A DNA stretch of 32,000 bases from Ureaplasma parvum serovar 3 str. ATCC 27815 (GTDB taxonomy: Bacteria; Bacillota_I; Bacilli_A; Mycoplasmatales; Mycoplasmoidaceae), in NCBI RefSeq assembly GCF_000019345.1, contig NC_010503.1, positions 180,001 to 212,000 of the forward strand. The letters are read 5' to 3'. The number at the start of each line of letters is the position of its first letter. Position 1 is the first letter of the stretch. This document shows positions 9,001-30,000 of the stretch, one piece after another. Position numbers: made by a program.

Positions 9001-12000
9001 AATTTAACATCATAATCACGATTATTAAACTTTATGTATATGGTTTTATGGAGCGACAAAGTATGATAAACAAATTTCTACAAAGTATTAAAAAACGTAA
9101 TTTATCAAAAAATACATATTTAACTTATGAATCACATTTAAGAAAGTTTAAGGTACAAGAACAAAGTTTTAAACAGATTATTAAGCAATTATTAAATAAC
9201 AATTACAAACCAAAAAGTCTAAAATTAGCTAAGTCAATTTTAAGTGAGTATTGAAAATTTAGCAAACAATACCAGTATGTTCAAGAATTAGAACAAATAA
9301 AATTAAGTAAAGAACAAAAAAGTTATAAAAAAGTTTTTAGTTTAGATGATATTAAAAAATGTTTAAAAATTAATAAACAAGATACTAAACAGATTAAGTT
9401 TTATAAAACGATTTTATTATTCTATGCCACAACTGGAATTAGAGCAATGGAAATCTATCAACTTAAACAAATAAACAATGACTTATTCGTAATCAGTGGT
9501 AAAGGTAATAAGAACAGACAAATTTGCTATATTGAACATCTGTGAAATAACATTAAAAACAAAAAACTACCATCAACTAAAACATTACGTAAATATCTAA
9601 AAGTATTTTTTGATAATAAAAACGTTTCATTACATACGCTAAGACGTAGTTTTATTACAAACTTTTTAACTAGCAATGAAAATTATAAACGTGGAGATAT
9701 GCTAAAGATTGTACAGGATTTAGTTGGTCATGAAAATATCCAAACAACACTACAATATGTACAAATCACAAAAGAACAAGTGGACGACGTTTATAAAGAA
9801 TTTTTTAAGGAATTTGAAAATGATAAATAATATTTTTAATAAAAAGTTGTTAGTTTACAACGAAAAAGATCAACGTTGGTATAACAAATTTGATAGAACT
9901 AAACCTTTATTTTCACCAAGTAGACTATTAAGTTTTAAAAATTACATTTTTGAAAAAATACCAGCAAAAAATCTAGAATATCCAATTGAGTTTGGAACTA
10001 GTTTAATGCAAATCATTCAATACTATTTTGAAAATCAATCAAAATTAGATGTCATTTTAAATAGTATTAATGAAGAAAAATTAAAAGAAGTCTTTTTATT
10101 GTTTTTAGACTATTTAAAAACAAATGATTATTCACTAATCGCTGTTGAATTACATTTATTTAGTCCAAAACTAAACCATTACTGACATGGTTTTGCTGAT
10201 GTTGTTGTTAAAACCAAAGATGATAAGTATAAAGTACTTGAAATCAAAACACACAACGAAATCCAATCAGTGCCATCTTGAAAGTTTCAAGCTGGTGTAT
10301 ATGATTACATCATCAGCCAAGAATTAAGCAATTACGAACCATCAGCTATACTAGCATTTAGTCGTAAACAAGCAAAGTTAAGCGTTTATGAAAATGATTC
10401 ATTAGATTTAAGTTTTATTAATAAAATCAATGAACTATATTCTTAATAAAAACAAAAAAGTAAGCTTAACTGAACTAATGAATCAACAACCACATTGATA
10501 CTTAGAAGAACTACAAGAACATTTAATTAAATATCTTGATACAAACGGACTAAACGACACTAAAAAACTAATTAAACAAACAATTAAAGAATGGAAAAAA
10601 TAATATGGATAAAATTAAAAATTATCTAGAAAAATTACAAGCGTTTTATAAGTTATATTCTCTTAATTTAACTCAAGGAACAGAAATTTTAATTATTCAA
10701 ATCATTGATAAAGGTAATTTAATTTTTGATTCCATTGAAAAAGGTAAAACATTTAACGAAAGTAAAATAATAGAACCACTTTTATTCATTTTTAAAAAAA
10801 TAAATACAATTTTAGCTATCTTAAAATTAACTTTTACTAAAGATGATTTAATTGGAATTCTACAATCATTAGAAGAGCATATATCAGAATTTATTATTGC
10901 AAATTATAAATATGATTTTGAAATCGAAGAAGATGATGAAGATTAATAACAATGGAAAAAATAGTTGGCTTTATTGTGAACATAATTAATGTTCAAAAAC
11001 AAATGATAAAAGACTTAAAAGAACTAAAAAATCATAAAGACATCATGGTAAAAGACCATGAAAAATTAAATGATATGTTAAATAGTATGATAGATGAAGC
11101 AGTTAAAAATTACAAAATTGCATTAAAAAACATAACAGAAATTCTAAACGTTCATTTAAACTGTGTTTTATATAATCACAATCTTAAATGTGGCGTAAAA
11201 GATGAAAAATTATTATTACCACTATTTAAAAGAAAGAAAGCGAGTTAATAACTTATGGCAATGCTTTGTATGTGTGATGAATGCCAAGCAATTATTAATT
11301 ATTATGTTGTACAAATTGAACAATTGTGTAACGAAATTGTAAAAACAAGAAAAAGAGTTGAACCATATAAAAAATTGGGTAAATTGTTTTTTGAAATTAT
11401 TCAAAATGATTTATTTGAAGCAATAGCTGAAGAAGTGTTTAGAATAGATGAAAAACCAAAACGAAAAACAAATAAAAGAGTATGTAAATAAATTTAAAGA
11501 TTTGCGTAATCAACTAACAAAAAACAATGACGTTAAAAAAGTTTGCGATTTAATTAATGATTTGTTTTTTGAAGTATATAAAAACAATTTAATAGATGAA
11601 GTTATCAAGGAGATTAACAAACATGACTAATTGAGATAAAGAACATGCATTAAGTGAAGAACTAAGACAATTAAAAGATGAGTTCGAAGATTTAATGGAT
11701 GATTTAGCAAGAATTAATAAAGATTTAGATTTTAATATCTGAGAACGTAAAGACTTAGAATATCGTAAAGCAAGTTATGAGACAGATATCGAAAGTATTA
11801 GATTACGAATTAACCAAAAACAAAATGAAATGATGGAGATAATAAAAAATGACAAATAGTATTAAACGTGAAATATTAAGTGCTTTAAATGATGAAACAA
11901 AAAAAGTAATTAGCAAATTACAACAAACAAATAATTTAATTAAACAATTAAGCGATGAAAAAAAGACATTAGAACAATATTTAAAAGATAATGTTAACAA

Positions 12001-27000: not shown

Positions 27001-30000
27001 TAAAACAACACGGTCTCAAATAGCGTGTTTAATAGCAGGTGCAAAAACAAGTTCAGAACCATACATATTATATTGAAACGCAATGCGTTTAAATGTAGCG
27101 TTAAATGTTTCATAAAAATAACGCAAATGAGCATTATCAATATAAATTACAATCTTAACGTTTACTTCTTGTTGTTTTTTAATAAACCAACGCACAACTA
27201 ACTCAATTTGTTGCTCGCTTGTTAGTGGATTAACATTGTTGTTATAAACCATTTCATCTAAAATCTCAATTCCATTTTCTTTTGAAATTGAACCAAATAA
27301 GCACGCAGTATCTGATGATGAACTACTTGTTCCATCTCCCCAGTCCATACCACCAAAAAACTGCATTGCATAATTATCATATTCGCCATATGGTTCATGC
27401 ATTACGCTTAAACTTCGTGCATAAATAGCACCTTCAACACTCCCACTTAATCCCAAACTAATTACACGATATTTAGAATAATCAATATCTTTTCATCATT
27501 CAAACTGCTCAATTTCTTGTTGTGATGTAAATTTATTCGCACGATATGTACTTCTTAAAAATAATTTTTTATCTACAACGCTATATTCATAATATGGCTT
27601 TTGTTGGATTGAGAATTCGTTTTCTGCTAAATGATTATTAAAATTTTCAATATATCAGTGTTCACTTGTTCAAGGATTAGATGCAAAAATAGATACGACC
27701 TGCGTATCTTTGGTACCCCTAAGTGATTGCTGTGAGTTTTTAACTAAATTAAAATCTAATTGTGACGCTTCTTCAAAAAACGCAAAAACATAACGTGCTT
27801 GCGTTCACAAACGAAATCCAACCTTAGCACCTTTGTTAATGTTATTACGTGTCTCATTTAATGCTTCAAACATTACAGTTCAACCATTAATAATAACAGT
27901 ACGTTCTGAATGGTTAATCTTAGCAAATTTTAATAATTGCTTTTGGTCTAAAAAATTTAAATAGTCGCTAAAAATTTTTTTCGCATCAGATATATTCTGA
28001 CGAAAAACATATATTGCGTTTTGCTGTTTAATCGCAACAAGTGATGACAAAAAATCTAATGTCGCAAAAGTCTTACCACTACTTCGTCCACCTAATAAAT
28101 TAATTTCATTAAATGGTATTGGCAACTTTTTGGCTACAAACTCAACTAAATCACTATAGAAACCAAAACATTCTATAAAATCTAGTTTTATTCTCATAAC
28201 GATATCAAAAAGCGTTAAACTAAAAACGATTAGTCTAACCTTTTTTTATTAAAATAAAGTTTTAACTATTACATTATTTTAAGTAGCTTTAATAATAACC
28301 ACTTACCACGTAAAAACTTTTAAAAATATAATGTGGCCTACTTTTGGTTATGTCTCGTGCTTTTATCACCAAAGAGATAAGACTAATAAATAATTTTCAC
28401 ACACAGATACTTGACAAACGTGCTCTTAAAGCTAACTTTGTAGCTATTATCATACGACTTATTTTTGTAAGCGGCAATATTCAGGTGCTTTAAAAGGATA
28501 TCTAACATATCTAAAAAACGTTGCTCTTTGTTCGTTTTTTCTAGTCATAAATATTATATCACATTTATAAGTTTTTTAATGGTTAATTTGTTATTATCAT
28601 CAACTTTTTCAAACGTTATTGTTGTATCTTCAATATCTGTACTTTTTTGCTCATTTGCTAACTCAAAATCTAGACGTTTAAAATATTCTTGCGTTCTAAA
28701 CTTACGCAATCCTTGGTTGTTTATTTCTTTATCATACGATGCGTTTCGTCCCAGCAACTCATTTAAAGCCATTCTAAGGCCGTAATTAGCCTTGGTAATG
28801 TATTCATACCTTTTTTTGTTAAACTCGTCTCTTTGCGTGCTTAAATTAACTCACACGCCCCAATTTATGCCTAAGAATTCAAGCAAAGCACTCAAATTAC
28901 ATAAATCTAGGTTTTTAGTAGTCATAACCAAAGTGTAAAAGTCATTGATTTTTAACTGCAGTTCTTGTAATTGTTTTAGTTCGTTTCTTTTCATCATACA
29001 AAAATTATAACCACATCGCACATAAAATTTAAATTAGATCATCGTTTAGTTTATCAATCAATAGTACAATCTAAAACGTTATCGTAAGGAAGTAGCGTAA
29101 TATACGCATATTGAGGATTATCGCAAAAGCGATAATACGAAATAGAAGTATATGAAGATACTTTCTTATGATAACTAATATCATTTTTTTAAAAGACTTT
29201 TAAAGTATATATACGATATCGTAGTCTTTTAAAAAAATATAATAAATATAAATAAGATAAGAAATAATAAATATGATGTATAAGAATAAATATACGAATG
29301 ATAATGAAGTATATTTATGAATTATATATTATATTTTTATTTTTTATTTTGTTTATATTTTAATTTATTACGCGTGAGAGAAATTGACAAAAATAAATTG
29401 ACAACAATAAAAAAATGTTGTTATAATATTCTTGTCGTTTCTAAATTGCTAGAAACCAAACAACATAAGCCAAGGTTCAATAATCAATATTATTTTTCAT
29501 TTTATCTTTTAAATCAATTTCTAAACCATTAGGATTTAATAATTGATTCTTTGTTAACGATTTATGGACAACTTGTGTTATTCCGTCTTTTTTATTAATT
29601 TCAATATCAAATGTTAATACAGGTTGATTATCTTGAAAAGAATTTAATATACTAAAATTTTGTAATTTAATGTTAATTTTTTTATTAGCTTTATCAATTA
29701 TTGTATTTAATTCTGCTTGTTGAATATATTGGTTTAATAATTCTTGTTGGTCTTCTTGTTTAAAATCAAATTTAATTTCATTATTATTTAAAGTAAATTT
29801 TGATATTTTATAGTTAATATTAGATGCTAAGCCATTTAATTTACCTGTAAGTATTTTTTTATTTGCATCAAATACTAATTCAGTAGCACTAATAGCAGAA
29901 GCGTCATCATTAGCACTATCTTTAACTTCTAAAACAAAATCTTTTTTATTAGCATCTGCTAATTTAAATTTACTAAATGTAACTTCAATAGTAGCAGTGC

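Follow-up and report, generated by a model that had tools for sequence, protein, structure and literature searches.

A 20,468-bp element that interrupts a surface-protein gene of Ureaplasma parvum serovar 3 str. ATCC 27815 is probably the genome of a temperate HK97-type (Caudoviricetes) phage, from a lineage of small (about 19-21 kb) Mollicutes phages for which the phage of Spiroplasma poulsonii NSRO is the sequenced reference. The element lies in a 32,000-nucleotide stretch of contig NC_010503.1 (assembly GCF_000019345.1, positions 180,001 to 212,000, forward strand), hereafter the window, by whose positions all features are given. It is UU145-UU170 (UPA3_0153-0176), the published 20-kb insertion of U. 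parvum and U. urealyticum, and its existence is not new. What is new here is that its capsid protein is identified, that it is placed in a lineage like that of the Spiroplasma phages, that excision and selection are supported in silico, and that two unannotated regulatory features are described. No phage has been isolated from Ureaplasma, and genetic tools are almost absent for these common human urogenital bacteria. The present reading turns a "pathogenicity island" into a concrete candidate for the first Ureaplasma phage, makes the existence of such phages directly testable, offers a defined integrase/attachment-site (att) pair for genetic engineering, and unites two poorly understood groups of Mollicutes phages in a single lineage whose virion gene set is unusually small. 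The insertion also inactivates the phase-variable surface antigen gene UU171/144 in the window strain, which gives it relevance to antigenic variation.

The late arm of the element is a leftward operon that the first-pass annotation had read as a minimal virion module. Its genes, in order of transcription, are as follows (aa, amino acids; ORF, open reading frame; TM, transmembrane; pI, isoelectric point; handles of the form L099 denote genomes, contigs and copies compared with the window).

28554-28997, minus strand: 147-aa ORF, small-terminase (TerS) candidate and first late-operon gene; its position upstream of TerL is conserved, and it abuts TerL in L099.
26752-28197, minus strand: terminase large subunit (TerL), one of the late-operon genes, with the motif GGRSSGKT; Terminase_6N 1.3e-40, Terminase_6C 5.4e-31, Terminase_3 3e-15.
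25398-26762, minus strand: portal candidate (454 aa), overlapping the TerL stop and flanked by TerL and the large protein in each of the four related genomes.
21923-25405, minus strand: 1160-aa conserved virion-module protein, with homologues after the portal gene in relatives.
21544-21912, minus strand: 122-aa membrane protein with two TM segments, by hydropathy.
21215-21541, minus strand: 108-aa acidic coiled-coil protein (pI 4.8), scaffold-like by position, no family match.
20012-21199, minus strand: major capsid protein (395 aa), HK97 fold by predicted structure; its family profile matches the Spiroplasma phage capsid.
19174-19956, minus strand: 260-aa basic protein (pI 10.0) with a hydrophobic N-terminus, candidate for a virion or assembly role by position.
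16931-19174, minus strand: 747-aa fibre with a collagen triple-helix segment (Collagen PF01391; tail-fibre PHROGs via the repeat); the N-terminal ~140 aa are possibly a head-tail adaptor.
15533-16926, minus strand: three membrane proteins with two TM segments each (147, 182 and 148 aa, by hydropathy) at the end of the late operon; terminator at 15520-15502.

The capsid protein has no family match, and in a search of 5.8 billion protein clusters it found three relatives, all of them Ureaplasma-type sequences; an exhaustive profile search extended these to 29 remote relatives (the exhaustive protein search used database proteins 98-99% identical to those of the window as queries). One metagenome scan for the context of the remote relatives (P0008-P0033) returned only further copies of the same Ureaplasma element. 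The protein was modeled with AlphaFold on a 27-sequence alignment (predicted local distance difference test, pLDDT, 78.8; predicted template modeling score, pTM, 0.80), and the model was compared with the PDB. The best 50 matches listed were all capsid proteins of tailed viruses, nearly all from bacteriophages, and 136 matches had E<=0.001, down to 4e-9. The best of them, which include 8i4l, 8eld and 6qvk (phi29), are those of short-tailed phages, namely P-SCSP1u, HRP29, phi29, PhiM1, Kp9, T7 and P68, and the predicted viral structures of BFVD agree with the capsid call. By these matches of a predicted structure, the capsid call of the first-pass annotation can be taken as confirmed at the level of the fold. 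Its TerL call holds as well, both the ATPase and the RNaseH-like nuclease domain being matched (Terminase_6N/6C), while its portal call remains a positional one. TerL found no relative in a one-genome-per-species collection, from which the source genome is seemingly absent or masked, nor in IMG/VR.

The 1160-aa protein fell only into its own cluster among the 5.8 billion, and neither the full sequence nor its separate domains matched anything in PDB, Pfam or PHROG; homologues lie downstream of the portal gene in L099 (58% identity) and L098 (25%, E 7e-17), and it would be the best candidate for a tail or DNA-delivery component. The 747-aa ORF contains a nine-triplet collagen run, and its N-terminus has a faint match to phrog_541, a head-tail adaptor family (E 0.0065, profile positions 22-120 of 129). 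The 147-aa ORF, which has no family match, would be the small terminase. The collagen-repeat fibre, the basic protein of about 260 aa and the three membrane proteins noted in the first-pass annotation were all seen again, plus a fourth membrane protein of 122 aa. The latter and the 148-aa protein (16480-16926) are probably paralogues, because an N-terminal motif (RIKWLWILT and RILWLWILT, respectively) and the two-TM layout are common to both. A holin-like topology, with basic N-termini and charged C-terminal tails, is seen in all four two-TM proteins. Between the TerS-like ORF and TerL lies a 356-bp gap (28198-28553) that differs between variants (blast alignments break at 28257-28553); the two genes adjoin directly in L099 (58% identical). 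A packaging site might be located in the gap, or else a small gene that varies (62-aa ORF at 28289-28477, minus strand).

As a working model, the late operon would build a particle from the small and large terminase subunits, the portal, the 1160-aa protein, the scaffold, the capsid, the 260-aa protein, the adaptor-collagen fibre and the membrane proteins. A short tail and DNA-delivery device would be formed by the adaptor-fibre together with the 1160-aa and 260-aa proteins, and the membrane proteins would serve release or lysis, or else exclusion; a role in release is proposed because a wall-less host needs no endolysin.

Placement of the element follows from comparison with the phages of Spiroplasma. 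Among deposited phages, the capsid gave its best tblastn matches, weak in themselves, to Spiroplasma phage MaM-2019a of S. poulsonii NSRO (three records of ~19 kb). A profile of the capsid family matched the Spiroplasma capsid over its full length (221 bits, E 2.3e-68), and direct blastp gave a more modest match (23% identity, E 5e-7). An N-terminal profile of the 1160-aa protein, made from the Ureaplasma, L099 and L098 sequences, matched a 1067-aa Spiroplasma protein (55 bits, E 7.6e-18), and the TerL profile matched the Spiroplasma TerL (49 bits). Agreement is fainter for the other structural genes: the 260-aa protein matched hyp305, at the same position, weakly (E 0.008), which the profile did not confirm; the portal-candidate profile aligned colinearly with the Spiroplasma portal at E 0.11 (hhalign); and the fibre N-terminus did not match the Spiroplasma head-tail connector. 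The Spiroplasma portal itself is a call of the depositors (HHpred, SPP1, 98.4%; OL689226/27/30), which single-sequence searches did not reproduce.

The genome plan of MaM-2019a (NSRO-P1/P2 and MSRO-P1; OL689226/27/30) is that of the element. Both consist of two convergent arms (18.9 kb in total versus 20.5 kb), both have a rightward early arm with an exonuclease, an annealing protein and RuvC, and both are without recognisable tail or lysis genes. The Spiroplasma leftward arm runs through TerS, TerL, a small ORF, the portal, the 1067-aa protein, a coiled-coil protein, the capsid, an unknown protein, the head-tail connector and membrane proteins, an order that it shares with the element. The two differ in that the Spiroplasma phage has a transposase where the element has a tyrosine integrase, ERF-type rather than RecT-type annealing, an SSB (a protein that binds single-stranded DNA) and two extra late-arm genes, and in that its connector carries no collagen fibre whereas the fibre of the element does contain collagen. 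Identity between them is only about 22-23%, and homology of the portal and of the connector was not demonstrable here. The Spiroplasma phages MaM-2019a are the sequenced representatives of the short-tailed "group 3"; their particles are icosahedral, about 40 nm across, classically described as short-tailed but tail-less after gradient purification, and their DNA is ~19 kb, circularly permuted and terminally redundant (bioRxiv 10.1101/2021.12.09.471767). The circular assemblies of the element described below are compatible with such DNA without being diagnostic of it. Because the Spiroplasma phage has the same minimal virion gene set, that set is a trait common to a Mollicutes phage lineage with documented particles. 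The early suggestion of a "podovirus-like or unusual" morphology thus gains support from homology and synteny with the NSRO phage and from the short-tailed structural matches of the capsid. The Spiroplasma paper does not mention Ureaplasma, and a literature search found no paper that brings Ureaplasma, Spiroplasma, prophages and the major capsid protein together.

The ends of the element are defined to the base by the following features, to which the integrase is added.

8328-9011, minus strand: host fragment UU144, the 3' part of the split UU171/144 surface-protein gene; contains the UU144 peptide DYDVKLTNVKIANIALNNDNV (PMC3047005) verbatim and fuses in frame to 29487-30040.
9012-9018, no strand: attL core/overlap ATAATCA, a repeat also given in PMC3047005.
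9063-9830, plus strand: tyrosine integrase UU145 "RipX", first early-operon gene, alternative start at 9048; PF00589 9e-9, phrog_1 1.5e-23.
29480-29486, no strand: attR core/overlap ATAATCA, duplicate of the attL core.
29487-30040, minus strand: host fragment UU171 (DUF1410), the 5' part of split UU171/144; PF07198 7e-6, in-frame fusion, PMC3047005.

ATAATCA forms a direct repeat at 9012-9018 and 29480-29486, and the 20,468-bp element lies between the two copies. Removing this length in silico, with one ATAATCA kept, fuses 30040 to 29487 with 9011 to 8328 into a continuous minus-strand ORF of at least 434 aa. Restoration of the host ORF by the deletion means that the element is a precise insertion into the DUF1410 surface-protein gene UU171/144. 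The complete prophage originally drawn at 9012-29494, with an integrase at one end, is borne out, and its ends coincide with the repeat. Genetic code 4 is required in the window (25.7% guanine plus cytosine): ORFs of at least 80 aa total 11,316 aa under table 4 versus 5,558 aa under table 11. Under table 4 none of the 25-26 element genes is interrupted, each containing 0-14 in-frame TGA codons, and overlaps of -1, -8 and -11 nt throughout both operons bear out the translational coupling proposed at first reading.

The insertion itself has a published history. It was described as a putative pathogenicity island from microarray presence/absence (Momynaliev 2007, as cited in PMC3047005, PMC3511179 and PMC3599477). 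Zimmerman 2011 (PMC3047005) gave the ATAATCA repeats, showed that in-silico deletion between them restores the locus, noted 22-bp repeats in serovar 10 and raised the question of mobility; strains with an uninterrupted UU171/144 gene exist (PMC3047005). According to Paralanov 2012 (PMC3511179), 9 of 14 serovars carry the ~20-kb insertion; an integrase, Bet and a PBSX-type terminase were identified in it, and its origin was put down to phage. Zimmerman 2013 (PMC3599477) showed by electrophoretic mobility shift assay that recombinant RipX (UU145) binds the flanking repeat. That this is the same element is seen from the flanks UU144/UU171/UU172, the ATAATCA repeats, the 22-bp repeat in U. urealyticum, the integrase first and terminase last, the presence in 9 of 14 serovars and the RipX binding; the UU172 peptide LNNDNLNYQTVTFEQVP, quoted in PMC3047005 for U. 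parvum serovar 3, also occurs verbatim in the window translation. Only three phage genes were recognised in these publications and the rest were left hypothetical; the capsid, kinship with Spiroplasma phages, attP junctions, selection analysis, the outward promoter and the 22-aa peptide cassette are not reported in them. Compared with the older record AF222894 (ATCC 700970; L091), the window is identical across 20 kb except for 18 differences, nearly all single-base indels, at 17635-17857. These differences are packed into 220 bp of the fibre gene, which is split in the AF222894 annotation; the split looks like a local sequence-quality problem of that record, because all other copies have an intact gene of 747-750 aa.

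The integrase reads as a tyrosine recombinase, its catalytic motifs R (TGIRAME), HxxR (HTLRRS), H (GHENIQ) and Y (LQYV) all being present in the translation. It would recombine a 22-bp attP core, CAAGGTTCAATAATCACGATTA, with chromosomal sites, the strands being exchanged in the 7-bp ATAATCA overlap, and the excised-form junction would read CAAGGTTCAATAATCACGATTATTAAAC. Evidence of a circular attP was among the checks suggested initially, and exact attP junctions were found in two independent public assemblies. In the 16.5-kb contig L094 (ERR16058324), the junction AACATAAGCCAAGGTTCAATAATCA|CGATTATTAAACTTTATG is the phage arm of the window attR joined to the phage arm of attL, base for base, which is what site-specific excision predicts. 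Contig L083 (SRR32524571) has a second junction of the same kind in a variant of ~94% identity. This contig is 20,599 bp long, of which 18,924 bp were read; because the unread 1,675 bp span an interval of 1,645 bp in two sibling copies, its ends overlap by ~30 bp, which we take to be typical of an unbranched circle assembled at k=31. By this arithmetic on the sibling copies, the L083 contig would close as a circle.

Insertion sites add to this picture. The full 22-bp CAAGGTTCAATAATCACGATTA stands next to host DNA in U. urealyticum copies, at attL in L090, L092 and L095 and at attR in L101 and L102, and this 22-bp site in U. urealyticum is the primary site. Strand exchange is placed within the ATAATCA overlap because two genomes carry host-type substitutions left of AATAATCA at attL. 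The serovar 3 target has only ATAATCA and a nearby ATTATT in common with attP, so that insertion there is read as a secondary-site event; in the window strain, the integrase would thus have used a secondary site in UU171/144, splitting the surface-protein gene. Copies of the element occur in at least four chromosomal contexts and their presence varies among strains; the identical insertion in all related strains, which the first-pass annotation had named as grounds for doubt, was not seen. Other chromosomal sites (L082, L085, L086, L087) harbour a second attP type whose overlap is ATAATTT, which suggests that integration is re-targeted by the changed overlap.

Two side observations concern these copies. 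When L083, L082, L085, L086, L087 and L096 are set against window 29440-29486, the two attP types are told apart by the overlap (ATAATTT in place of ATAATCA) and by the arm next to it. The second type has inserted next to a DUF4011/AAA_11 helicase gene, inside a hairpin (ACACTATCCGTT...AACGGATAGTGT), and at an additional site. L081 (U. urealyticum AJGA01000004, 7538-11059) holds a deletion derivative located near LeuRS, at the primary attachment site. Its integrase and exonuclease, 92% identical to those of the window, are fused without intervening genes to a segment of 74% identity that runs from the 122-aa membrane-protein gene through the scaffold-like gene into the capsid gene. That this segment derives from another variant shows decay and mosaicism in some strains.

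Selection on the genes was measured as the ratio of nonsynonymous to synonymous substitution rates (dN/dS) between the window copy and copies of the second attP type (~94% identical overall). The lowest values in the element are those of the portal candidate (0.02-0.03), next to the capsid (0.03), TerL (0.04) and the TerS-like ORF (0.06-0.07). The 147-aa and 148-aa membrane proteins gave 0.02-0.07 and the three late-end membrane proteins 0.02-0.14, followed by the 260-aa protein (0.15), the fibre (0.15-0.16) and the 1160-aa protein (0.18). Most early genes fall at 0.14-0.26, among them the exonuclease (0.14), RecT (0.24) and the 229- and 153-aa ORFs (0.21-0.24); the integrase gave 0.11. The virion genes are under strong purifying selection (dN/dS 0.02-0.18). 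The element (9019-29479) is also depleted of GCGC (0 versus 14.5 expected) and CGCG (1 versus 11.7 expected), the lone CGCG being at 29371 in the control region, and its flanks are without depletion. This scarcity, remarked on in the older literature (PMC3511179) and confirmed here, suggests selection against GCGC/CGCG-specific restriction systems and a trace of passage through restricting hosts. Taken together, purifying selection, GCGC/CGCG avoidance, the attP junctions and the several insertion sites point to a currently or very recently active phage and not to a decaying remnant, and judging from its sequence, virions would still be produced.

Several observations weigh against this reading. 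No Ureaplasma virion has ever been seen in the literature, a 2024 review states that no Ureaplasma phage has been identified so far, and Southern blots found UU145 in only 1 of 6 serovar 3 strains (PMC3599477). Searches of Pfam and PHROGs found no tail-tube, tape-measure, sheath or nozzle family and no recognisable lysis gene. The portal candidate has three relatives only and no Pfam, PHROG, NCBIfam or PDB sequence match; its AlphaFold model, from three sequences, was poor (pLDDT 44.5), and the top fold match, the SPP1 portal, had a non-significant E of 0.19. The 454-aa protein would be a portal by its place in the operon, an assignment not established by sequence or structure. Structure and profile searches, proposed at the outset for every product and for three above all, upheld the capsid at 20012-21199 and left 25398-26762 and 21923-25405 as they were. 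The adaptor domain of the fibre likewise found no support from Pfam (E<=10), the PDB or comparison with the Spiroplasma connector. No helix-turn-helix (HTH) or CI/Cro-like family was found in any ORF, and no repressor or immunity gene was recognised. As regards excision, attP-type junctions could also come from tandem prophage arrays, and the window copy may excise poorly, because the serovar 3 site has only 7 (+6) bp in common with attP.

Much of this would also be expected of a defective or domesticated prophage, one that excises and integrates without forming infectious particles (for example, because tail genes were lost) and is kept as an integrative element or for some benefit to the host. 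Its missing tail, lysis and repressor genes, the lack of any phage isolated from Ureaplasma to date and the degraded derivative in U. urealyticum AJGA01000004 all fit such a history, and the authors of the Spiroplasma study raised the same doubt about their own phage. However, every virion gene, the unassigned ones included, is under strong purifying selection, the same tail-less set occurs in a Spiroplasma phage with historically described particles and infectivity, and restriction-site avoidance together with several recent insertion sites implies continuing horizontal passage; we regard a defective prophage as unlikely. A satellite or gene-transfer-agent-like system, which would make heads and need a helper for tails or package random host DNA, draws on the same missing tail genes and on the non-phage contigs found in Spiroplasma particle preparations. 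Yet the element itself supplies an integrase, an att system, TerS/TerL, a portal candidate and a capsid, and it moves as one unit whose ends are defined; whole-element circular contigs exist and no second prophage was seen as a possible helper, so that this explanation seems very improbable. Least credible of all is the reading as a pathogenicity island, or as some other integrative element of non-viral nature, in which the membrane and collagen-like proteins would be bacterial surface or virulence factors. It was proposed from microarray presence/absence (Momynaliev 2007, as cited), and might be suggested by the four membrane proteins, the collagen-repeat protein and the location in or next to phase-variable surface-antigen loci. 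With an HK97 capsid, TerL and modules in a phage-type order, however, little coding capacity is left for non-viral functions; the family searches detected nothing connected with virulence, toxins or secretion, and the collagen protein matches phage tail-fibre families.

The early operon, control region and inter-operon gap contain the following features besides the integrase.

9820-10446, plus strand: PD-(D/E)XK exonuclease; phrog_298 1.9e-4, D...EIK motif (FADVV...VLEIKT).
10430-12184, plus strand: seven small ORFs (57, 113, 98, 78, 60, 78 and 111 aa), tightly packed or overlapping, from gene calls in sibling copies.
12184-12840, plus strand: RecT single-strand annealing protein (UU154, "Bet"); PF03837 1e-20.
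12830-13970, plus strand: two ORFs (229 aa and 153 aa), the 153-aa product weakly DnaD-like (phrog_16826, 0.0027).
13952-14629, plus strand: RuvC-like Holliday-junction resolvase, last early-operon gene; phrog_827 2.8e-5, phrog_1770, phrog_159; terminator at 14693-14724.
15179-15381, minus strand: stand-alone cassette with a perfect sigma-70 promoter, a strong Shine-Dalgarno sequence, a 22-aa hydrophobic peptide MELSDLIVIILTIIQILISLRK (15298 to 15230) and a strong terminator; unannotated in all gene tables.
29022-29479, no strand: non-coding control region with a perfect extended -10 promoter, TTGACA-18-TATAAT (29398-29427, plus strand), followed by the palindrome GTTTCTAAATTGCTAGAAAC.

PHROG and Pfam matches thus agree with the nuclease, RecT and RuvC-like resolvase that had been assigned to a rightward operon by inspection. 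Among the small early ORFs, the 111-aa product weakly matches a RecE-like C-terminus (3.5e-4) and the other six have no family matches; the 229-aa and 153-aa proteins have no PDB or NCBIfam matches. Pfam, PHROGs and NCBIfam gave no polymerase, helicase, primase or HTH repressor, the DnaD-like match (E 0.0027) being the sole hint, and the original impression that recognisable tail, repressor and replication genes are missing stands after these searches. Because no polymerase, helicase or primase is encoded, replication is presumed to be recombination- or host-dependent, and would be aided by the exonuclease, RecT, RuvC and perhaps a DnaD-like loader.

The early arm is a single 13-gene unit in which the largest internal gap is 6 nt and the int start lies 30-45 bp from the att core; the promoter of the early operon can for this reason only lie across attP. 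The promoter at 29398-29427 is 52 bp inside attR, is aimed outward across the att core and is kept in all variants. Perfect TTGACA-N16-18-TATAAT promoters number two in the 32-kb window (0.12 expected), and both are within the element. Because attP lies between them, this promoter could drive int and the early operon only in the circular form; L094 and L083, the contigs with an attP junction, have it connected to the int leader. Integration would disconnect the early operon from the promoter and redirect the latter into host DNA. Judged from geometry alone, such a split could replace the missing repressor. We propose, tentatively and with some doubt, that lysogeny may be kept up by physical uncoupling without a classical repressor; with a 1160-aa protein and an adaptor-fibre in place of canonical tail genes, this would amount to a minimal scheme, specific to Mollicutes, for the construction and control of a tailed phage. 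Once the element is integrated, the promoter runs antisense through UU171 and on the same strand as the phase-variable UU172 (30417-31916, plus strand), whose start is 990 bp downstream, and the prophage might alter expression of the UU172 locus in serovar 3 strains.

The cassette at 15179-15381 sits in the variable gap between the operons; its architecture is kept in other copies while the peptides are divergent (MTLYEIITLILTTISIIITLVKK, MDKDKLIAILIILIEILISIVKN), and L083 has two peptide cassettes in tandem. With a small hydrophobic peptide, its own strong promoter, a Shine-Dalgarno sequence and a terminator, it has the features of a type I toxin, and from its sequence the cassette resembles prophage type I toxins or a small lysis or exclusion peptide. 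An antisense RNA antitoxin was not identified, the opposite strand having only a 9/12 promoter-like site, and an Rfam search of the inter-operon gap gave only sub-threshold chance matches.

Outside the element, the left flank carries SMC, FtsY and YlxM-like genes, the closest relatives of which are in Ureaplasma species (FtsY 78% to U. diversum, in a one-genome-per-species collection), and tRNA genes for Ile-GAT and Ala-TGC lie at 8074-8229. Synteny with other Ureaplasma species ends past the FtsY/YlxM genes. A 1272-aa DUF1410 lipoprotein-like ORF (4067-7885, minus strand), located between the SMC-FtsY-YlxM block and the tRNA pair, is without counterpart at the loci examined in other Ureaplasma species, which marks the neighbourhood as a variable surface-protein region.

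Among phages of related hosts, the element is like MAV1, phiMFV1, MHoV-1, P1 and MAgV1 in being a small double-stranded DNA phage of a wall-less host with many membrane proteins and few recognisable structural genes, and protein P38.8 of Mycoplasma phage P1 has the HK97 fold in common with the capsid model. Kinship with MAV1, phiMFV1, P1 and their like, to which the first-pass annotation had looked, was not upheld: megablast of the element against 50,697 phage genomes gave no match, and tblastn with TerL, the capsid and the portal candidate brought no Mycoplasma phage among the protein-level matches. By these comparisons the element appears to stand outside the MAV1, phiMFV1, MHoV-1, P1 and MAgV1 groups, and its affinities are those with the Spiroplasma phages set out above.

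The proposed uncoupling of promoter and early operon likewise has partial parallels. Switches of expression that depend on integration or circularisation are known from Tn916, whose transfer genes are expressed only after circularisation, from the junction promoters of insertion sequence (IS) circles, from the integration-dependent immunity of mycobacteriophages, and from SSV1 and Mx8, in which attP lies inside int. The element would resemble them in that attP lies between a strong promoter and its genes, so that integration uncouples the two. The resemblance is one of geometry only, and the element differs in what is split: in place of a truncated repressor or int gene, here the whole early operon, int included, is parted from its promoter.

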